A DNA stretch of 64,000 nt from an uncultured Methanomassiliicoccus sp. (GTDB taxonomy: Archaea; Thermoplasmatota; Thermoplasmata; Methanomassiliicoccales; Methanomassiliicoccaceae). The position numbers and the translations under genes were made by a program. Each line of letters begins with the position of its first letter. Within the stretch, counting starts at the first letter, position 1. The stretch is taken from positions 28,340 to 92,339 of the forward strand of contig CAJKXZ010000004.1 of the NCBI GenBank assembly GCA_905203995.1. Direction: 5' to 3'. Below are positions 20,939 through 61,928 of the stretch, piece after piece. Below the pieces are notes generated by a model that did not search any database, was not told where the DNA came from, and was given only the letters and a program-made list of their open reading frames with translations.

Positions 20939-21030
20939 GGGCTCGTGGTGTAGCTTGGATATCACCGAGGCCTCCGGCAGGAACTTCCTGGAGACAGCCT
21001 CAGACCCGGGTTCGAATCCCGGCGAGCCCG
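20939..21030 (+). tRNA. tRNA-Arg (anticodon CCG) with 18-nt intron at canonical position 37/38 (intron 20978..20995); CCA not encoded
   Basis: Hand-folded cloverleaf. Acceptor GGGCTCG/CGAGCCC with discriminator G. D arm with A14, G18G19, A21. Anticodon stem GAGGC/GCCTC. Loop C-T-CCG-G (m1G37 context). T arm CCGGG-TTCGAAT-CCCGG. The intron forms a helix-bulge-helix-bulge-helix with two 3-nt bulges (GG^C and AC^A) separated by a 4-bp helix CUCC/GGAG. Confidence 0.85.
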
Positions 21031-21340
21031 CTCAATGCCTCGGCGATAACTAATCGCAGGCGGTGAGCGCGGGATTGTTTTTGATATTATTTTTGAATTA
21101 ACTATATATTCAACACTTTAGTCGCCAGCATTGAATTTTTTAGCTGGTGAAGATACTCAATAAAGAATGATTGTTAGGGGAGCTACATCATTTCGTCGTT
21201 GGTGTTATTTTTTGAAATGCAGACGGAATGAAGAATGCCAAGTCACCATCGTTCGTAATTTACTTATCTTTTAATCCAGCTATGGTCAGAATGTTCTGCC
21301 GGGAAGACTTACTTCAAATTGCTCCCGTATAGAACAATAA

Positions 21341-28268: not shown

Positions 28269-29555
28269 ATGTCCGTAAATCCCGAGTTAAAAGCAAAGAT
28301 GCTGAAATATCGGTGGGCCATCTTTATCATCCTAGCGATAGCCTACTTTTTTGTCTATTTCCATCGTGTATCGACGACAGCAATGTCTCCTGATATTGAG
28401 GAGGCCTTTGGTATCGGAGCAGCAGCTGTCGGTCTCTTGGCCTCGGCATATTTCTACGCCTATACAGCAATGCAGCTGCCGAGTGGAATCTTCACTGACA
28501 AATGGGGTCCGAAAAGATCAGCGACCGTTTTCATTATTATCACGGCCATCGGTTCGCTCATCTGCGGCTTAGCTACCAGTTATGCCATGCTGATTGCTGG
28601 TAGGGTTATCATTGGTGTTGGTGTAGCCGTTATTTACATCCCCATCATGAGAGTACTAGCCGTCTGGTTCAGGAAAGACGAGTTTGCTTCCTTGAGCGGA
28701 ATTCTGCTGATGGTTGGTAATGTCGGAGCGATTGCCGCAGCGACGCCGTTAGTCTTGATGACGGAAGCGCTCGGCTGGCAGAACGTCTTCATTCTCTTGG
28801 CAGTTATTACCTTCATCATCGGTCTGATGTGCTGGATTATTGTCAAGGACCACCCCAAGGACAAGGGCTACCCCAGCATTGAAGAAATCGAGTCTGAAGA
28901 AACAGGCAAGCCCATTGAGGAGTCCACTTCGGAAAAGATGTCTATGGTGGAATCACTGAAGATTACCTTCGGCAGTGGCAGAAAGTTCTGGACCCTGGCC
29001 ATCTGGTTCTTCTTCATGTACGGTTCAATCATGGTTTACCAGGGTCTGCAGGCCGGTGCCTACTACACCAATGTTTATGACTGGAACAAAGACACCTGGG
29101 GCATTCTGCTGACCTTAGTGGGTGTGGGTATGATTATCGGCTGCCCGCTTGCCGGTGTAATCTCTGATAAAGTCCTCCACTCACGGAAAAAAGTATTGGT
29201 TCTGGGTACGCTCATCTACACCATCATCTGGGCCGTAATCTGGTTAATGTCCGGTAAGCTGGATTCGCTGGTAGCGCAGGGTATCATCAACTTCTGCTTT
29301 GGGTTCTTTGGTGGTTTCTTCGTCGTCTCTTACGCACAGGTCAAAGAACTTTACCCGGTTTCGATCGTCGGCGTTTCCACGGCTGCCTTAAATCTCTTCC
29401 CCTTCCTGGGCGGAGCAATTCTCCAGAGCATCTCTGGTTACATTGTCGCTGATAAAACGCCAGAACAGTTCCAAACCTTGTGGATGATTATGTTCATCTG
29501 TATGGTTATTGCCACTATCTGTGCGTTCTTATCATCGGAAAAACAGAAAAGCTAA
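28269..29555 (+). CDS. MFS transporter (oxalate/formate antiporter-like, 12 TM)
   Basis: 12 hydrophobic segments; MFS motif GRVIIGVGVAVIYIP; central hydrophilic loop. Confidence 0.7.
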   Translation: MSVNPELKAKMLKYRWAIFIILAIAYFFVYFHRVSTTAMSPDIEEAFGIGAAAVGLLASAYFYAYTAMQLPSGIFTDKWGPKRSATVFIIITAIGSLICGLATSYAMLIAGRVIIGVGVAVIYIPIMRVLAVWFRKDEFASLSGILLMVGNVGAIAAATPLVLMTEALGWQNVFILLAVITFIIGLMCWIIVKDHPKDKGYPSIEEIESEETGKPIEESTSEKMSMVESLKITFGSGRKFWTLAIWFFFMYGSIMVYQGLQAGAYYTNVYDWNKDTWGILLTLVGVGMIIGCPLAGVISDKVLHSRKKVLVLGTLIYTIIWAVIWLMSGKLDSLVAQGIINFCFGFFGGFFVVSYAQVKELYPVSIVGVSTAALNLFPFLGGAILQSISGYIVADKTPEQFQTLWMIMFICMVIATICAFLSSEKQKS

Positions 29556-33971: not shown

Positions 33972-34640
33972 TTAATTTTTTTTATTTAAAACATGATCTA
34001 ATTCAGGACAAGACGTCCTCATAAAAATATGATAAACTTCGAAACTGCCGGTTTCCATGCCTAATATTCTTTCTGTCATATACTGCAGCACATCTAAAGA
34101 CTGTTCAATGGTTTCAATATCGGGATGCTCTTTTATTTTCATCATTGCCGCCCGGATCATCATGCTGACGGTGTAGGAACTGTCTTCCGGATAGCGGGTA
34201 TCAAAAACTCCCTCTTCAATGCCCTGCTGGATAATTTTGCCGAAAGCTGGCACCACCATTTCATACGCTAGTCTTTCTACTTCCAGATGAAGGTTTTTGT
34301 TGCGCGACATGGAAAAATATTTAATTACGGTTTCTGAACGCATACTGACGTCTCTTTGTGATTTCAGCAGTTCAATAAAGCGCTCTTCAGCGGTGATATT
34401 TTTCATTTCCAAAACTGCAACGATTGAAGATTCAATCTCCTTGAGCATTCGTTGAATTAAAATCTCAATCAAATCTTCTTTTGAACCAAAATAATAATAA
34501 AATAGTCCCTTGGCAACGCCGACTTTTTTGATGATATCGTCCACCGAAGTGTTTTCGAACCCTTTCTCACGAAAGAGCTCTTCTGCCGCATTAATTAACT
34601 CGGCTTTTCTTTCAGCAGAGATACATTCTTTCTTAGCCAT
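33972..34640 (-). CDS. TetR-family transcription regulator
   Basis: HTH FENTSVDDIIKKVGVAKGLFYYYFGSKEDL. The ORF track extends to 34745, but that overlaps the upstream gene; the Met at 34640 (MAKKECIS..) gives a normal TetR N-terminus. Confidence 0.7.
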   Translation of the reverse strand: MAKKECISAERKAELINAAEELFREKGFENTSVDDIIKKVGVAKGLFYYYFGSKEDLIEILIQRMLKEIESSIVAVLEMKNITAEERFIELLKSQRDVSMRSETVIKYFSMSRNKNLHLEVERLAYEMVVPAFGKIIQQGIEEGVFDTRYPEDSSYTVSMMIRAAMMKIKEHPDIETIEQSLDVLQYMTERILGMETGSFEVYHIFMRTSCPELDHVLNKKN

Positions 34641-34692: not shown

Positions 34693-35061
34693 TTAGGCTG
34701 ATTGTCGTACCCAGACATTGTCCGGGAGTCCTTCATACACTCCATATTCCGAATCTGCCTTTGCTACTGGAGCTTCGATGATCTTAAGGATTTTTTCTTT
34801 ATCAAGCGTCCAGTAAAACACTCTCCAGGGCCTCCCTGTAAACAGTGTTTCTTCTTCATACCGTGAGGAAATTATCTGAAATTCTTCCAGGAAATAGAAC
34901 ATTCCCCGGTCCTCCGGTGTAAGGGCGTTGTCAATCATTTCACTATTGTATCCAAAGTAGTTTAGGACTCTTTCTGCTAGCTGCCCAGAGGTCTCCGTGT
35001 CGATCTTCGATTTCCTCTCGATCGCCGTACGTAGCTCCTCATAAGTAACTGGCCCATACAT
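34693..35061 (-). CDS. Hypothetical protein
   Basis: 122-aa ORF; no recognisable motifs. Confidence 0.35.
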   Translation of the reverse strand: MYGPVTYEELRTAIERKSKIDTETSGQLAERVLNYFGYNSEMIDNALTPEDRGMFYFLEEFQIISSRYEEETLFTGRPWRVFYWTLDKEKILKIIEAPVAKADSEYGVYEGLPDNVWVRQSA

Positions 35062-35098
35062 TTTTTTTCACCTGTTTTAGACAATCCTTCAACTGCTA

Positions 35099-35120
35099 TA
35101 TTGACTGACTGTCAGTCAGT
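35099..35120. promoter_or_regulatory. Operator candidate TATTGACTGAC-TGT-CAGTCAGT (inverted repeat ACTGAC-N5-GTCAGT) upstream of the AcnX operon
   Basis: Inverted repeat seen directly; 20/22 identical to the site at 37197..37218; a TATA-like ATTTAAAT lies ~25 nt downstream. Confidence 0.5.
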
Positions 35121-35207
35121 AATGAAATAATATCTATTTAAATTTGATGGTTTTCTTCGATCTAACATGCACAAGATATTTCACTCTGGACGTCATAACA
35201 ACCCTAG

Positions 35208-36365
35208 ATGTTTCTAACCAAGGAAGAAGAGCAGATTCTTGCCGGCGAATTCGGTCAAGGAAAAAAGAAAGCAATGGAGTTGCTAGTAGCTCTGGGAGAT
35301 ATTTATGGAGCAAAACGTTTGATTCCTATCACTTCTGCTCATCTTTCCGGTGTCTCATACAAAACTATTGGCGAGGGTGGCATTTCCTTTTTGGAAGAGA
35401 TGTCCGCTGATTCAAAAGTATGTGTGCCCACGACTCTCAACCCGCCGGGCATGGACCGTGAGAAGTGGCAGGCGATGGGTATTTCTGAACATTTTGCTGA
35501 GCGCCAGCATAAGATTATTTCCTGCTATGAAAAACTGGGTGTAACCTCTAACTGTTCCTGCACACCTTATTTAGACATCAACGTCCCTCAAATCGGTGAA
35601 CATGTTTCCTGGGCAGAATCCAGTGCCCTTTCTTATGTTAATTCTGTTATCGGCGCCAAAACCAACCGTGAAGGCGGACCGGGGGCGCTGGCGGCAGCTA
35701 TTCTCGGCAAAACTCCGGAATACGGACTGCACCTGGACGAGAACCGCCAGCCGGCGCTTACGATCGAAGTCAAAGCCGACAAGATTAACTATTCTGTTTT
35801 GGGGCAAGCGGTAGGACAGTTAGGCGGTGGTAAAATCCCTTATTTCAAAGGAATTAAGCCGACGCAGGATCAGCTGAAAACCCTGGCCGCCGCCATGGCC
35901 GCAGCCGGTTCGGTCGCTCTGTTTTACGTGGAGGGCATTACTCCTGCTCCTGCTGACCTGACAAATACGGAAAAGATTACAATTGATGATCAAGAGTTGT
36001 CTTCCGTACGAGATAAAATGAGTACGGGCCAAGATCCGGAACTTATTGCCTTAGGCTGCCCGCATTTATCTTGTGAGGAGATTCATAATCTGGCTGCTAA
36101 ACTGAAAGGTAAAACCAAGAAAGGCGACACGGAAGTATGGTTCTGTACTTCGCGCTGCACGGCGGCTAAATGTAAAAAGGATCTCGATGTGCTTGCTAAA
36201 TTCGGCAATGTGATCTGCGACACCTGCATGATTGTCACGCCGATTGAAGAGCGCTTTAAATGTACGGCGGTGGACTCTGGCAAAGCCTGTAATTATCTGC
36301 CCACACTCTGTTCGCAGAAAGTGGTTTTCCGTGATACTGATGATCTTCTGGAGATGATCTTATGA
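35208..36365 (+). CDS. AcnX-type dehydratase large subunit (DUF521); in archaea this is the phosphomevalonate dehydratase large subunit of the alternative mevalonate pathway
   Basis: Aconitase-X catalytic-domain pattern (~385 aa, conserved Cys/Ser-rich segments TSAHLSGVSYKT, GCPHLS); it is followed by an overlapping DUF126-type small subunit gene. Confidence 0.65.
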   Translation: MFLTKEEEQILAGEFGQGKKKAMELLVALGDIYGAKRLIPITSAHLSGVSYKTIGEGGISFLEEMSADSKVCVPTTLNPPGMDREKWQAMGISEHFAERQHKIISCYEKLGVTSNCSCTPYLDINVPQIGEHVSWAESSALSYVNSVIGAKTNREGGPGALAAAILGKTPEYGLHLDENRQPALTIEVKADKINYSVLGQAVGQLGGGKIPYFKGIKPTQDQLKTLAAAMAAAGSVALFYVEGITPAPADLTNTEKITIDDQELSSVRDKMSTGQDPELIALGCPHLSCEEIHNLAAKLKGKTKKGDTEVWFCTSRCTAAKCKKDLDVLAKFGNVICDTCMIVTPIEERFKCTAVDSGKACNYLPTLCSQKVVFRDTDDLLEMIL

Positions 36366-37135
36366 TTTTAACGGGCAGAAAGATTTCTCAAGGTAAAGCA
36401 CAGGGTAAAATTCTCCTTTGTCCTAATCCCGTAAGCTTCTTAGGCGGTGTCAATCCGCAGGATGGCAAAGTCGCCGATCCGGCTGTTAACGGACAGTCTG
36501 CTAAAGGGCGTGTCTTTGCCTTTCCGCGCGGTAAAGGTAGCACTGTCGGCTCCTACGTCGTTTATGATATGAAAGAGCACGGAACGCTGCCCGCAGCGGT
36601 TATTAACGAAAGTGCTGAGCCGATCGTAGCAACCGGCGCGGTGATGGCCTCCGTGCCGATGGTCGACGCTATCGATCTCTCTTTATTGCGAGAGGGTGAC
36701 GATTGTATCGTTGACGGTTCAACCGGTACGATTGAGCTGCCGGGAGTCAAAGAGATTCATGTTGTCAGCTGTGTTATCAAAGACGGCGATCAAATCCTGT
36801 TTTTGAAGCGGTCGGCAAAAGTCGGTACTTTCCAAGGATATTGGTCGGCAGTAAGCGGCTTCATTGAAGTGGGTGAAACACCTTTGGAAACGGCAATCAA
36901 AGAAGTGCGGGAAGAAACCTGCATTGTTTCTGAACCGGTGCGCTCCGCCGAACCTTTCAGAGTGCGGGAAAAAAACACAATCTGGGTAATTCATCCTTTC
37001 TTATTTGAGGAACCCAACTGCACTGTACAAATTGACTGGGAGCACACTGAATACAAATGGGTCAAAGTGGAAGAAACTACTGGCTATACCTGTGTTCCTG
37101 GTTTAGATATTGTATATAGATTACTAGGACTTTGA
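36362..37135 (+). CDS. Fusion of an AcnX small subunit (DUF126, aa 1-~125) with a C-terminal Nudix hydrolase domain
   Basis: The N-terminal half matches the small subunit (ILTGRKISQGKAQGKILL.., GSTVGSYV). The C-terminal half carries a canonical Nudix box GFIEVGETPLETAIKEVREETCI (Gx5Ex7REUxEExGU). The start overlaps the large-subunit stop (ATGA). Confidence 0.65.
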   Translation: MILTGRKISQGKAQGKILLCPNPVSFLGGVNPQDGKVADPAVNGQSAKGRVFAFPRGKGSTVGSYVVYDMKEHGTLPAAVINESAEPIVATGAVMASVPMVDAIDLSLLREGDDCIVDGSTGTIELPGVKEIHVVSCVIKDGDQILFLKRSAKVGTFQGYWSAVSGFIEVGETPLETAIKEVREETCIVSEPVRSAEPFRVREKNTIWVIHPFLFEEPNCTVQIDWEHTEYKWVKVEETTGYTCVPGLDIVYRLLGL

Positions 37136-37196
37136 ATCGCTCTATTCTTGATTCGTCTAGTCATCTATATATAGCCCTTTTTCTTTGATGGGTGTT

Positions 37197-37218
37197 TATT
37201 GACTGACCGACAGTCAGT
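37197..37218. promoter_or_regulatory. Second copy of the operator candidate TATTGACTGAC-CGA-CAGTCAGT upstream of the MFS efflux pump
   Basis: 73 nt upstream of the ATG at 37291; 20/22 identical to 35099..35120. Confidence 0.5.
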
Positions 37219-37290
37219 TTTGATTGCCGGGTTAATCTTACAAATTAAACCCAATCGGTACGTTCTGCACCGTGGGTATGAGGTGCTGAG

Positions 37291-38949
37291 ATGGAGAATG
37301 CAAATTTCGATAAAAAGCCAGGTAAGGCTGAGGTCGATGTGCGGAAAGTACGTACACCGATCATGATCGGTTTGATTCTCGGTATGTTGTTGGCATGTAT
37401 TGATGGAACGATCATCGGTACCTGCATGCCGAGTATCACTTCTGATTTTGAAAATGGAATGGCCTTATACACCTGGCTAATTACTGGTTATCTTCTTGCT
37501 GAAACTATTGTAACCCCCATCGCTGGAAAGATGTCTGACCTCTATGGAAGAAAACCTATCTTCCTTGGCGGTATGATTCTATTTCTGGGAGGTTCCATTT
37601 TTGCAGGTCTTTCAACCAGCATGGAGCTGTTAATTGTAGGTCGTGTAATACAAGGTTTCGGCGGCGGTATGCTTATTCCAGTTGCAATGGCGACCGTTGC
37701 AGATTTATATGAACCACGAGAAAGAGGAAAAATTCAAGGTATCTTAGGAGCCATCTTTGCTATTGCTAGCGCCATTGGACCATTCATTGGTGGTGTAATT
37801 GTTGATAACACAACATGGCACTGGGCCTTCTTTGTAAATGTACCTATTGGAATTATTGCCATTGCCTTTACGGCTATTAAATTCCCAAAGGTTCAAGCAG
37901 AACCAAACATAAAAATCGATTATCCAGGAATCGCAACATTATCCGCATTTTTAGCATTACTTGTGATAGTTGTGACATTTGGCGGAAGTACATATGCTTG
38001 GAACAGTCCTGAGATAATCGCCATGTCATTAGGTGCAATAGTCTTCCTTGGTCTGTTTATCTATCTAGAGAGCAAAGTAGAGGAACCATTAGTGCCACTC
38101 CGTCTTTTCCGTTCTCGTACGTTCGTTGCCGGGTGTTCTGGTCTATTGGTAATGTCATTAGGTCTGTTTGGTATCTTAACCTATGTCGCCATGTTCCTGC
38201 AAAAATATGTTGGACTAAGCGCTACTAATAGCGGTGCGACTTTAATCCCCTTAACCATAGGTATGACAATTACTTCAGTTGGGAGTGGATTTTTACTTAA
38301 GAAGACTGGATATATGCCCTGGCTGATTGTAGGTCCCCCCGTTGCAGCGGTTGGTTTATACTTAATATCAACTCTTGAAATGGGAAGTCCCCAATCAGAA
38401 GCATCACTATACCTCATTCTTGCAGGATTAGGTATGGGTTGCGTAATGTCTAACTTCATCGTAGCAGCGCAAAATATCACTCCAAGAAGAGACATGGGTG
38501 TAATGACATCCACCATGAGCTTGTTTAGAAGCATTGGTGGAACAGTAGGTGCAGCTCTAATTGGTTCTCTAATCAACAATCGTATTGCCATCGAACTGCA
38601 AGAACGTCTGCCCACAGAGGTGTATGATAGCCCATTTGTGCCACACAATACTGGTGTTATGGACATGATAAATCAGATTACGACCCTGTTCCCTCAGTTT
38701 AATAACTTGGATATTGACATCACAATGGCGTATGGACAGAGCTTATCTTATGCATTCGTGATATGTTCTATAATCGTATTAGCTACGATAGTTGCAAGTC
38801 TGCTGGTAAAACGTATACCGCTTAAAACAGATGAGGAATACGAGCAGATTAATCTCGAAGCTGAACTGGCTCATGAAGCCGAAATGGCTAAAAAGCAAGA
38901 ACAAAAACTTCAAAAAGCTAAAAAACACAAAGGGGACGGCTCTGGTTAA
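37291..38949 (+). CDS. MFS drug:H+ antiporter, DHA2 (EmrB/QacA, 14 TM) family
   Basis: 14 hydrophobic segments; motif A GKMSDLYGRKPI; motif C-like GPFIGGVIV. Confidence 0.8.
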   Translation: MENANFDKKPGKAEVDVRKVRTPIMIGLILGMLLACIDGTIIGTCMPSITSDFENGMALYTWLITGYLLAETIVTPIAGKMSDLYGRKPIFLGGMILFLGGSIFAGLSTSMELLIVGRVIQGFGGGMLIPVAMATVADLYEPRERGKIQGILGAIFAIASAIGPFIGGVIVDNTTWHWAFFVNVPIGIIAIAFTAIKFPKVQAEPNIKIDYPGIATLSAFLALLVIVVTFGGSTYAWNSPEIIAMSLGAIVFLGLFIYLESKVEEPLVPLRLFRSRTFVAGCSGLLVMSLGLFGILTYVAMFLQKYVGLSATNSGATLIPLTIGMTITSVGSGFLLKKTGYMPWLIVGPPVAAVGLYLISTLEMGSPQSEASLYLILAGLGMGCVMSNFIVAAQNITPRRDMGVMTSTMSLFRSIGGTVGAALIGSLINNRIAIELQERLPTEVYDSPFVPHNTGVMDMINQITTLFPQFNNLDIDITMAYGQSLSYAFVICSIIVLATIVASLLVKRIPLKTDEEYEQINLEAELAHEAEMAKKQEQKLQKAKKHKGDGSG

Positions 38950-38966: not shown

Positions 38967-39305
38967 TTAATTTTTATATACATATCTACTGATTGTAACG
39001 AGAGTTGTGATAATAACAACTACAAAGAACAGTCCAAAGATAGCCATATAATTTTCATTTATTGATCCTGTGTCTACTGCATGTCCCAGATATGCTAGAA
39101 TACAGAGCATAAGGCAGCAGATCACGCATAAAACTCCTACGGCTTTGCATAATTTCTTCTCATCATAGTTTCTTCGTTCATCAGGGGCTAATGAATTATA
39201 GCCAGCTATCAACCATTGTCCCTTTCCGTTAAACAAGAAAATACCGATAATCAAGAACAACAACGCTACAACAAGAATGATTATTTCGGCCAGCATATGA
39301 ATCAT
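38967..39305 (-). CDS. Small membrane protein (3 TM), unknown function
   Basis: Hydrophobicity only. Confidence 0.35.
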   Translation of the reverse strand: MIHMLAEIIILVVALLFLIIGIFLFNGKGQWLIAGYNSLAPDERRNYDEKKLCKAVGVLCVICCLMLCILAYLGHAVDTGSINENYMAIFGLFFVVVIITTLVTISRYVYKN

Positions 39306-39493
39306 TCCAACATTTGTTTCTTACAAAGTCATCTACATTATCTTTTTTGCTACAATCCCTTCTGAAATGAATCTTACTGCTCTGTAATGAATATCAACAT
39401 TATAAAAAAGCGGAATTCCTCAGCTCCAATTCACTTTGACACTTTGATATTTCTTTCTAAACTCATTGGGCTGTTTAGTGCCTGCTACTAATT

Positions 39494-39592
39494 TTACGTA
39501 AAGGTTATGCCCATATGGGCTAAAGTTTTAAATGAAACTTTGGTGATATCTTACGTAAAGGTTATGCCCATATGGGCTAAAGTTTTAAATGA
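39494..39592. repeat. Two exact 42-bp direct repeats (39494..39535 and 39551..39592; TTACGTAAAGGTTATGCCCATATGGGCTAAAGTTTTAAATGA), each containing the 12-bp palindrome GCCCATATGGGC
   Basis: Exact duplication seen directly; the second copy overlaps the first in-frame ATG (39589) of the downstream ATPase gene. Confidence 0.8.
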
Positions 39593-39600
39593 GGAATGAC

Positions 39601-40890
39601 ATGGAAATTAAACGGGATCTATATCTGAATCAATTAATTCAGTACCAGTGGGACGGCTTGGTAAAAGTCATTACAGGTATCCGCAGATGTGGAAAATCCT
39701 ATCTGCTCCATGTCCTTTACTACAATCACTTATTATCAAACGGAGTTAAGAAAGAGAATATCATCTCCATTGAACTGGACCTTACCAAAGACTTACGTTT
39801 CAGAAATCCTCTGGAGCTTGCATCATACGTGAGAAATTTAGTTGAAGGCAAGGATGAAAATTATTATCTTTTTATTGATGAAATCCAGATGTCTGATGCT
39901 GTTCTGAATCCCTACAATCCCCACGGTAAAAAGATTACGTTCTATGATGCTTTAAACGATCTAAACAGCCTCAGTAATCTCGATATTTATGTTACGGGAA
40001 GCAATTCCCGGATGCTTTCATCAGACATACTTACAGAATTCAGAGGCAGAAGCAGTGAAATCAGAATGCATCCTCTGAGTTTTTTAGAGTACTACAAGGC
40101 AGTCGGCGGAGATAAGCAGGAGGCTTTCAACACCTATGCTTTTTTCGGCGGGATGCCGTTTATCACCTCAGGTCTGGACGATACTGCAAAAATGAAGTAT
40201 CTTTCTTCACTGGTATCTGAAGTGTATCTCAAGGATATTGTGGATAGAAAAAAGGTAGAAAGGGAAGACGTATTGTCGATGATTCTTGATTTACTCTGTT
40301 CTTCAATAGGTTCGCTTACAAATCCTAATAAAATTGCTGATACATTGCGCTCAAAAGCACACATCAAAGTATCGCAAAATGTAGTTGCGTCATATGTTGA
40401 ACATTTTAAAGATGCATTTTTGTTCTCAGAAAGTAAACGTTACGATGTCAAAGGCAGACATTATTTTGAGTATCCTCACAAATATTACTGTGAAGACATT
40501 GGTTTGAGAAATGCCAGGATAGGATTTAGGCAGCAGGAAATGACGCATATCATGGAGAATATAATTTACAATGAGCTGATCCTGCGCGGATTTTCGGTTG
40601 ATGTTGGTGTAGTGTATTCCCGCGAAATAAATGCGAACGGCAATTCTGTCAGAGTTCCCAGAGAGATCGACTTTGTAGCAAATAAAGGCGGAAAGAGAGT
40701 GTATATCCAGTCTGCATTTGCCCTTCTTACTGAAGAAAAGAAGGAAGCGGAGCTTAAGCCGTTTTTACTGACTGGGGACTCGTTTCCTAAGATTATTATA
40801 CGAAACGACGTTGGAAAGAGATGGTATGATGACACGGGAGTGCTGAATATCGGGCTGATTGATTTTCTTCTTGATGAGAGTGCTATTTGA
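39601..40890 (+). CDS. AAA+ superfamily ATPase with C-terminal DUF4143 (COG1373-like)
   Basis: Walker A GIRRCGKSYLL; Walker B LFIDEIQ. The ORF track starts at 39589 inside the repeat; the ATG at 39601 (MEIKRDLYLNQ) is the more likely start. Confidence 0.7.
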   Translation: MEIKRDLYLNQLIQYQWDGLVKVITGIRRCGKSYLLHVLYYNHLLSNGVKKENIISIELDLTKDLRFRNPLELASYVRNLVEGKDENYYLFIDEIQMSDAVLNPYNPHGKKITFYDALNDLNSLSNLDIYVTGSNSRMLSSDILTEFRGRSSEIRMHPLSFLEYYKAVGGDKQEAFNTYAFFGGMPFITSGLDDTAKMKYLSSLVSEVYLKDIVDRKKVEREDVLSMILDLLCSSIGSLTNPNKIADTLRSKAHIKVSQNVVASYVEHFKDAFLFSESKRYDVKGRHYFEYPHKYYCEDIGLRNARIGFRQQEMTHIMENIIYNELILRGFSVDVGVVYSREINANGNSVRVPREIDFVANKGGKRVYIQSAFALLTEEKKEAELKPFLLTGDSFPKIIIRNDVGKRWYDDTGVLNIGLIDFLLDESAI

Positions 40891-60473: not shown

Positions 60474-61928
60474 TCATTTGCTGAACGCCACTTCGCACTC
60501 CTCTTCCAATTCCGTTTTTCCTCGCAGTGTGGAGGTCAGAGCACCAAGCAGGGCGATGAGACCTGATACTTTCAGAGCTGCACTCATACCGACAATAAAT
60601 TCTGCATTGTCTACTGCTGAACTGCCGCCCATAAAGACTGAGGAGACTAAGGCCGAAGAAGTCACAATAGCCATTACTGCACCCATCAGCACTAGACTCA
60701 GGGATTGACCGACGGTACGCATCGTTGAGAGCATACCGGAAGCCACGCCGGTCTTGTCTTTACTTACACTTCTCATTACGGCACTGGTGTTGGGCGATGA
60801 AAAGATGCCCATGCCAGCGCCGAGAATTAACAGATAAACGACTACCATGGAAACGGAAGTCTCAGTATTGAGTGTACTAATCAGGAATAAACCAGCTGCC
60901 ATGATGAGCATGCCGAGGGAAGAAAGAGTTCTCGAACCTACTTTATCTGAAAGAATTCCGGAAAGTGGTGAAATCACACACATGATCAACGGCATCGCCA
61001 GTAAAATCAATCCGGTCGTTCCAATATCGATTCCCAGCACTCTTTGGAGGTAAAAGGAAATTACAAAGGTTGAGCCGTAGTAAGCAGTATAGTTGAGAAA
61101 CGCTGAGAAATTAGCTGCCGCAAAAAGACGGTTTTTGGTGAACAAGCGCAAATCGAAAAGTCCGTCTTCGCCTTTTTTCCGTTCGATCAAAATAAAGAGG
61201 GCAAAGGATACGGCTGAAATGATTAACAGACCAATGACTTTGAGGGACAGCCAACCATCAATATCGCCGAGGGTTAAAGCCAGTAAGATCGTCACCAGAC
61301 CGACGGCAAAAGTCGCAGCGCCACCAATATCAAATGAGCCACACCTATCGACTAATTCGCACTCATCTAGCTTCCATAAGGCGAGAGCGATGGTAACCAC
61401 GGCAATCGGTACACTTACGAGGAAAATCGAATGCCAGCCGAAACTTTGAGTCAATACGCCTCCCAGAGGTGGGCCGATGGCGAGGCCGAGGTAGATGGCC
61501 ATGACATTCAGACCCAGCGCTCTTCCCTGTTCACGGGGCGGGAAAGCTGCTGAAACCAGTGCGGTACCGGAAGTCATGATAAAGGCGGCACCGATGCCCT
61601 GCAGCACCCGGAAAACAATCAATTGCTCTCCTGTCTGTGCTAAACTGCAGAGCAGAGAACCGACGGCAAAGATGGCAAAACCGCCGATGTATATTTTTTT
61701 CTTTCCAATTATATCTGAAACACGTCCGACAATGAGCAGAATGCTGGCGATCGCCACTAAATAGGCGGTAGGGACCCATAAAGTCTGGGCGTAATCCATC
61801 TGCAAGGCATCAGAGATGGCCGGCATCGAAACGCTGACGATCGTCGAATCTAACGGTCCCATGAGGGAGCCGATGGAGGCGATTAATAATACCATCCATT
61901 TGTATGACAAGCCAGATTCTTTTCTCAC
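60474..61928 (-). CDS. MFS drug:H+ antiporter, DHA2 family (14 TM)
   Basis: 14 hydrophobic segments; motif A GRVSDIIGKKK. Confidence 0.8.
   Translation of the reverse strand: MRKESGLSYKWMVLLIASIGSLMGPLDSTIVSVSMPAISDALQMDYAQTLWVPTAYLVAIASILLIVGRVSDIIGKKKIYIGGFAIFAVGSLLCSLAQTGEQLIVFRVLQGIGAAFIMTSGTALVSAAFPPREQGRALGLNVMAIYLGLAIGPPLGGVLTQSFGWHSIFLVSVPIAVVTIALALWKLDECELVDRCGSFDIGGAATFAVGLVTILLALTLGDIDGWLSLKVIGLLIISAVSFALFILIERKKGEDGLFDLRLFTKNRLFAAANFSAFLNYTAYYGSTFVISFYLQRVLGIDIGTTGLILLAMPLIMCVISPLSGILSDKVGSRTLSSLGMLIMAAGLFLISTLNTETSVSMVVVYLLILGAGMGIFSSPNTSAVMRSVSKDKTGVASGMLSTMRTVGQSLSLVLMGAVMAIVTSSALVSSVFMGGSSAVDNAEFIVGMSAALKVSGLIALLGALTSTLRGKTELEEECEVAFSK

Follow-up and report, generated by a model that had tools for sequence, protein, structure and literature searches.

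The described systems closest to the locus treated here are the repressor/pump pairs QacR/QacA of Staphylococcus aureus and TetR/TetA, in which a repressor with a TetR_N helix-turn-helix (HTH) domain acts on a palindromic operator at the promoter of its target, an efflux pump of the major facilitator superfamily (MFS), and, among archaea, FadR of Sulfolobus acidocaldarius (Saci_1107), a TetR repressor with (semi-)palindromic sites whose site at its own gene is located just downstream of the start site and which represses there, after TBP/TFB binding (PMC6449355). We analyzed a stretch of 64,000 nucleotides (nt) from an uncultured Methanomassiliicoccus sp. (assembly GCA_905203995.1, contig CAJKXZ010000004.1, positions 28,340 to 92,339 of the forward strand; this whole stretch is called the window), in which two near-identical palindromes lie on either side of an operon encoding an aconitase X (AcnX) type dehydratase, with a DUF6015-tetR operon next to the first and a gene for a DHA2-family MFS efflux pump next to the second. 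We consider it likely that both palindromes are operators of the local TetR protein, which would repress the DUF6015-tetR operon and the DHA2 pump, and that the AcnX operon is independent of them. As far as the sequence tells, this is an ordinary repressor/efflux module, whose regulation we infer.

Like QacR/QacA and TetR/TetA, the locus combines a TetR_N HTH repressor, a palindromic operator at the pump promoter and an MFS pump as presumed target, and autoregulation as well as derepression by pump substrates would be further shared traits. The pump is moreover of the same DHA2 type (QacA/EmrB-like) as in QacR/QacA. Unlike in that system, the operator is located downstream of a TATA box at the putative start site, in keeping with an archaeal host, and not in a sigma-70 promoter, it has the sequence GACTGAC-N-GTCAGTC and is matched by a recognition helix containing FYYYF, and the pump gene is detached from the regulator gene and accompanied by a second operator copy. 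The resemblance to FadR lies in the combination of an archaeal TetR repressor with (semi-)palindromic sites, but FadR responds to acyl-CoA and its target is a 30-kb cluster of lipid and fatty-acid genes, which it represses, whereas the target here would be an efflux pump. The two proteins are also not closely related in sequence, and among the PDB matches of the window TetR, FadR is not conspicuous.

Two palindromic sites and the associated TetR protein

Site 1 (TATTGACTGACTGTCAGTCAGT, 35099–35120) and site 2 (TATTGACTGACCGACAGTCAGT, 37197–37218) are identical at 20 of 22 positions. They are the only matches in the 64-kb window to the 22-mer with up to three mismatches (0 expected), to the 17-bp palindrome with up to three mismatches, and to the string ACTGAC-N5-GTCAGT with up to one mismatch (two matches, 0.06 expected). 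An earlier note on this DNA, made from the letters and translated reading frames, had reported this pair of palindromes, which are indeed present as claimed and the sole such sites in 64 kb, and its distances of 88 nt from site 1 to the AcnX start codon (ATG 35208) and of 73 nt from site 2 to that of the MFS gene (ATG 37291) are correct as well. Its description of the dyad as ACTGAC-N5-GTCAGT, by contrast, needs to be revised: this register is displaced by 2 bp, an alias that stems from the ACTGACTG periodicity, and the dyad is GACTGAC-N-GTCAGTC, centered on a single base. This can be seen in loci L128–L134, which were found via the protein and not via the motif, where the sites read TTGACTGAC-N-GTCAGTC, a perfect dyad in the single-N register but one with mismatches in the N5 register. 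(L-numbers denote loci or contigs retrieved from other genomes and metagenomes; the loci of relatives are 8–16 kb long.) In the corrected register, operator 1 (35102–35118) is a perfect 8+1+8 palindrome of 17 bp, TGACTGAC-T-GTCAGTCA, and operator 2 (37200–37216), TGACTGAC-C-GaCAGTCA, pairs at seven of eight positions; neither is assigned to a strand. They represent the putative autoregulatory operator of DUF6015-tetR and the putative operator of the MFS pump gene, respectively.

The TetR-family repressor gene (33972–34640, minus strand, 222 aa) is the second gene of the DUF6015-tetR operon. Its start at ATG 34640 is preceded by a GGTGAT Shine-Dalgarno sequence and agrees with the starts of the homologs, and the Pfam TetR_N domain (PF00440, 66.6 bits, cut-off 24) spans residues 50–94 of the long TetR open reading frame (ORF). 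The protein matches 148 TetR structures in the PDB with alignments that extend to residue 157 of the 222, and its score against TetR_C_39 (22.1 bits) falls short of the cut-off of 27. Since the best PDB matches (3b81, 3lwj and 1rkt) are uncharacterised structural-genomics entries, neither a ligand nor a DNA complex is transferable. Homologs with a source annotation all stem from Methanomassiliicoccales or other Thermoplasmatota/Euryarchaeota. The earlier note had placed a divergent TetR gene just upstream of site 1; the minus-strand orientation holds, but the gene does not directly adjoin the site, as the DUF6015 gene lies in between.

The association of the motif with this kind of regulator extends far beyond the window. 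In a scan for TTGACTGACNGNCAGTCAG of one genome per species (185,579 species), at least 119 loci were found, where about 70 matches would be expected by chance (1.2e12 positions, 17 fixed bases), and a hidden Markov model built from 120 homologs of the window TetR was run on the ORFs around the matches. Among the matches listed, 48 have a TetR gene of the subfamily that starts between −130 and +250 bp from the motif center, mostly 17–140 bp downstream, an interval into which a random site would fall with a probability well below 1%, while 66 are without a nearby TetR gene, in line with the chance expectation. The TetR-linked loci among the matches listed belong to archaea (Thermoplasmatota, Saliniplasma, Hadarchaeota, Methanosarcinales and Methanobacteriota) as well as to bacteria (Chloroflexota, Leptospirales, Actinomycetota, Bacillota, Mycoplasmatota and Proteobacteria). 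A second, independent scan, of metagenomes and with the stricter 21-mer ATTGACTGACNGNCAGTCAGT, returned 114 loci, in which 65 of 117 sites are located directly upstream of a TetR gene. The motif-adjacent TetR proteins are only 25–50% identical overall to that of the window, and despite this the 48 of them have a nearly invariant recognition helix, GVAKGxFYYYFxSK (in the window GVAKGLFYYYFGSK), in common, as is expected of proteins that read the same DNA. From these comparisons we conclude that the motif in all probability constitutes the operator of this TetR subfamily. The proposal of the earlier note that the palindrome is a TetR operator and the neighboring TetR its binder is thereby supported by comparative genomics, through the 48 genome loci and the 65 metagenome sites.

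Seven Streptomyces matches (L011, L049, L057, L072, L077, L100 and L116) are found in one homologous conserved region with no TetR gene nearby, most likely a coding sequence that contains the 19-mer by coincidence. Tandem copies or extra half-sites (GTCAGTCA) occur beside the main operator in L041 (Frankia), L048 and L068 (Methanosarcinales), L061 and L063 (Paenibacillus), which suggests that binding may be cooperative or involve several dimers in some lineages. A literature search with the palindrome strings gave nothing relevant, and the regulator/operator pair appears to be undescribed, yet it belongs to a very well-known kind.

Promoter geometry and the efflux pump

Both sites are found downstream of a candidate TATA box, in opposite orientations. 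The box of the putative DUF6015-tetR promoter (TTTAAATA, 35135–35142, minus strand) precedes the palindrome core by 16 nt and the extended 19-mer by 14 nt, and is kept as TATATAAA in relatives; read along the minus strand, the region of site 1 thus consists of TTTAAATAG (the reverse complement of 35134–35142), 14 nt, the operator and an invariant leader of about 40 nt. On the plus strand, the box of the putative MFS promoter (CTATATATAG, 37165–37174), which is conserved in orthologs, precedes operator 2 by about 25 nt, and the latter occupies about +3 to +21 of the expected transcript. The same arrangement recurs with constant geometry at about 15 archaeal TetR loci, namely a TATA box, 10–16 nt (or up to 25 nt), the 19-bp operator, a Shine-Dalgarno sequence and the ATG, and it is matched by site 1 on the minus strand and by site 2 on the plus strand. 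Archaeal TATA boxes are centered near −26, and with this geometry the operator would cover the expected start site, a position that is classical for blocking the recruitment of RNA polymerase.

The gene behind site 2 (37291–38949, plus strand, 552 aa, with a GAGGTG Shine-Dalgarno sequence at 37280–37285) encodes a DHA2-family (EmrB/QacA-type) MFS efflux transporter according to Pfam MFS_1 and NCBIfam TIGR00711 (290.6 bits, cut-off 230.2); its length, taken alone, is compatible with the 14 transmembrane segments of the DHA2 type. The order operator, TetR, MFS is found in L128–L134, L104, L105, L050, L054 and L118, where the MFS protein is 44–57% identical to the window pump. More distant Methanomassiliicoccaceae and Thermoplasmatota, with a TetR that is 38–49% identical, thus have a single operator ahead of TetR and the DHA2 pump, often with a gene for Usp behind them. 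Because such distant relatives show this order, the DHA2 pump is best seen as the conserved cargo and target of the regulator. In the clade of the window, the pump gene has apparently changed sides with respect to the AcnX operon, and it has a TATA box and an operator copy of its own. That the pump is a TetR target, as suggested in the earlier note, is therefore in agreement both with the ancestral operator-TetR-MFS layout and with the way in which site 2 stays with the pump gene.

The latter is evident from close relatives. Eight of their contigs have the same gene order, with identities of 67–73% for TetR, about 90% for AcnX and about 95% for DUF6015, and both sites stand out as invariant islands within otherwise diverging intergenic DNA; most of the syntenic contigs come from human-gut metagenomes. 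L001 and L176 have an additional gene (about 418 aa) between the AcnX operon and the pump, and here site 2 remains 145 bp upstream of the pump gene and not at the end of the AcnX operon. Since it travels with the pump in these contigs, site 2 would belong to the pump promoter.

We propose that a TetR dimer binds the GACTGAC-N-GTCAGTC dyad and that, bound just downstream of the TATA box over the start, it would block the recruitment of RNA polymerase or the opening of the promoter. At site 1, this would repress the minus-strand DUF6015-tetR promoter and thus amount to autoregulation, and at site 2 it would repress the promoter of the DHA2 MFS efflux pump. A small molecule, probably a substrate of the pump, would release TetR and thereby derepress both promoters.

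The surroundings of the pump gene form an insertion hot spot. An ORF of 418–432 aa without Pfam match lies between AcnX-NUDIX and the pump in some relatives (L001, 4228–5484; L004, 830–2128; also L176), and the pump gene of the window is separated from an aconitase gene by genes for DUF3784 and an AAA_14/DUF4143 ATPase (38967–40890), while the pump and aconitase genes are direct neighbors in L006. Two more MFS paralogs are encoded in the window (28269–29555, plus strand, and 60474–61928, minus strand); they are about 30–33% identical to the pump and have no operator copy.

The AcnX operon and other readings of the two sites

The operon between the two sites encodes the large subunit of an archaeal type II aconitase X of the phosphomevalonate dehydratase type (35208–36365, plus strand; Pfam AcnX, PF04412, E = 4e-149) and a small (swivel) subunit that is fused to a NUDIX hydrolase domain (36362–37135, plus strand; Pfam AcnX_swivel, PF01989, and NUDIX; PDB match to TK1248, E = 2e-34), as separate tandem genes with an ATGA overlap. 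The best PDB match of the large subunit is 7cnr_A of T. kodakarensis (E = 4e-99), with 335 bits against 178 bits to proline dehydratase, and the score to the NCBIfam C3LHyp equivalog (254 bits) is far under the cut-off of 700. Type II AcnX is described as mevalonate 5-phosphate dehydratase in two published accounts (PMC8184944, PMC10040528). All 120 best homologs (Methanomassiliicoccales) have the swivel-NUDIX fusion, the operon sits by the genes for IleRS and FEN1 in relatives, and no second AcnX copy was found in the 64-kb window. AcnX/AcnX-NUDIX therefore looks like the housekeeping phosphomevalonate dehydratase, and the idea of the earlier note that the pair might not be housekeeping here is not borne out, given the order-wide fusion and the IleRS/FEN1 neighborhood. 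As to the NUDIX domain itself, it has a near-canonical Nudix box (GFIEVGETPLETAIKEVREETC) and finds its best PDB match in the MutT-related protein 3grn of M. mazei (E = 1e-7). A literature search revealed no link between NUDIX and AcnX or phosphomevalonate dehydratase, and an activity of the domain on isoprenoid diphosphates is speculation.

The AcnX genes seem to have a promoter of their own. A block resembling a TFB recognition element (BRE) with TATA box (GCACAAGATATTTCAC, 35169–35184, plus strand) ends about 25 nt before the AcnX ATG and would be the promoter of a leaderless AcnX mRNA. Loci L128, L129, L130 and L133 as well as the window clade share its consensus, GCACAAG-n-(A/T)TTT(C/A)(A/T), with an unchanged distance of 25 nt to the ATG. 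The AcnX ATG at 35208 lacks a Shine-Dalgarno sequence, in contrast to the starts of DUF6015, tetR and the pump gene, and a conserved block at this distance from a start codon without such a sequence is characteristic of a leaderless mRNA transcribed from a promoter of its own, which would be independent of site 1. The center of operator 1 is located about 68 bp upstream of the TATA-like element and thus outside the footprint of the archaeal pre-initiation complex. The distance from the operator to the AcnX ATG furthermore amounts to 98, 103, 238, 282 or 478 bp depending on the lineage, in one case with an intervening ORF of 64 aa, while the geometry between operator and TetR is fixed across the same lineages. 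Most likely, the AcnX operon is not under the control of this operator.

The earlier note had instead considered that TetR controls the AcnX/NUDIX operon via site 1 and the pump via site 2, so that isoprenoid precursor supply and efflux would be co-regulated. Bacterial TetR regulators commonly control divergent neighbors, site 1 is indeed located in a short (146 bp) divergent intergenic region close to the AcnX start, and AcnX is the divergent neighbor of the TetR operon throughout the Methanomassiliicoccaceae. We nevertheless regard this reading as unlikely, as site 1 has its promoter geometry on the minus strand, AcnX has a promoter-like block of its own that is out of reach of the operator, and the spacing between the two varies from 98 to 478 bp. 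Moreover, in relatives the whole FEN1-IleRS-AcnX-TetR-MFS-Usp block is syntenic, so the adjacency of AcnX and TetR carries little weight, and the AcnX/NUDIX fusion is the order-wide and presumably essential form and not a specialised paralog. The idea that the sites are not regulatory at all, being copies of a dispersed repeat or of the end of a mobile element or, in the case of site 2, a hairpin that terminates the AcnX operon, would fit the position of site 2, 62 nt past the AcnX-NUDIX stop codon and followed by TTTT in the window. This has next to no chance of being correct: the orthologs lack the T-run and read CAGTCAGTATGACC, site 2 stays with the MFS gene and not with the AcnX 3′ end in L001 and L176, and the motif is linked to TetR genes across genomes. 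We therefore rejected site 2 as a terminator. Nor does the motif belong to a widespread repeat family, which the earlier note had named as a finding that would speak against an operator, for the 64 kb contain no more than two copies, and metagenome contigs of the clade (L140, L156, L176 and L220) show just these two site types.

A different candidate for the binding protein is encoded by the gene nearest to site 1. The DUF6015 gene (34693–35061, minus strand, 122 aa; Pfam DUF6015, E = 8.8e-18) is the first gene downstream of site 1 and has an AGGTGA-N7-ATG start region. Its product is predicted to be a winged-helix protein, as an AlphaFold2 model built from a 66-sequence alignment is confident (predicted local distance difference test, pLDDT, of 86) and has winged-helix topology. 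The structural matches of this model are weak and comprise the extended winged helix of TFIIE-alpha/Tfa1 and RPC3 and the archaeal regulator AbfR2 (E = 1.6e-3, template modeling score 0.48). Among about 500 distant relatives of DUF6015, some have the domain C-terminal to MarR, TrmB or HTH_20 domains, and such fusions to MarR/TrmB-type HTH domains would also favor a role of DUF6015 in binding the palindrome in place of TetR. We consider this highly improbable and rejected it: among more than 230 motif-bearing loci, DUF6015 is found beside the motif solely in the window's own clade and is missing from every locus outside it, including L128–L134 where the operator is present, while TetR accompanies the motif across both domains of life. 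The gene has probably been inserted between the original operator and tetR in the clade of the window. Its nearest homolog is annotated as Candidatus Methanomassiliicoccus intestinalis. Between operator 1 and the DUF6015 Shine-Dalgarno sequence, an alignment of five species reveals an invariant block of 18 nt (ACAATCCTTCAACTGCTA, 35081–35098, minus strand), which is as conserved as the operator itself and presumably forms part of the 5′ leader (5′ untranslated region) of the DUF6015-tetR mRNA.

TetR repression of both DUF6015-tetR and the pump, with AcnX independent, thus remains the reading we prefer, but several observations weigh against it. The TATA boxes and start sites on which the proposed geometry depends were read from the sequence alone. 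In a single related species (L006, 7825–8010, and also L007 and L008), the TetR start codon reads ACG in place of the ATG of the window (GGTGAT-CTG-ACG-ACT...) while both operators are perfect. AcnX divergently adjoins the TetR gene across the family, even through local rearrangement, which might reflect a functional link, and the two promoters, back to back, are separated by just some 38 bp in the window clade, such that the occupancy of site 1 by TetR may have an indirect effect on AcnX. That TetR at site 1 also tunes the AcnX/NUDIX operon through interference between these promoters is, in our estimation, improbable. If it did, induction of the pump by a membrane-active or toxic compound would at the same time alter the supply of isoprenoid lipid precursors, and the persistence of AcnX beside TetR throughout the Methanomassiliicoccaceae would be explained. 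With regard to the ACG codon in L006–L008, the coding sequence of TetR is intact and comprises the HTH, and gene callers give a product of 166 aa without HTH; the codon could be a non-canonical start, or the repressor could have been lost very recently.

DNA looping between the operators on either side of AcnX is another idea that we rejected, as their spacing is 2.1 kb in the window and 3.5 kb in L001 and L176 and hence not conserved. Elsewhere in the window, a gene for tRNA-Ala(GGC) (20939–21031, plus strand) has a length of 93 nt that implies an intron and fits an archaeal origin.

Operator and promoter in archaea and bacteria

Bacterial TetR proteins of the subfamily, such as those of Paenibacillus (L063), Leptospirales (L066 and L067) and Solobacterium (L119 and L120), share with the window TetR the exact 19-mer operator, the recognition helix and the autoregulatory placement of the site, and as in the archaeal loci an MFS gene is often adjacent. 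To our knowledge, no bacterial member of this subfamily has been characterised. In many bacterial loci, the TTGACT of the operator represents the −35 box, with a −10-like hexamer (TATTAT, TAGATT, TAAATT, TAATAT, TATACT and others) 16–18 nt downstream. The operator is hence placed over the −35 box and spacer in bacteria, whereas in archaea it would form a block at the start site after the TATA box. The regulator-operator pair would have been preserved to the letter in both bacteria and archaea and been re-embedded in two unrelated promoter architectures, an idea that is more likely to hold than a tuning of AcnX by TetR.

For an efflux-type control of mevalonate-pathway genes we see no good support. 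If the proposed repression of DUF6015-tetR and the pump is correct, the locus would, in comparison with its bacterial counterparts, provide a clean example of a bacterial-type regulator re-wired onto the archaeal basal machinery. We know of few archaeal TetR regulators that have been studied, and of none in the methanogenic Methanomassiliicoccales of the human gut. The regulon would be precise and testable, consisting of a single 17-bp operator at two promoters and of one DHA2 pump. It may be of use for understanding the tolerance of gut methanogens toward drugs and bile compounds, and the repressor/operator pair may serve as a tool for archaeal genetics.

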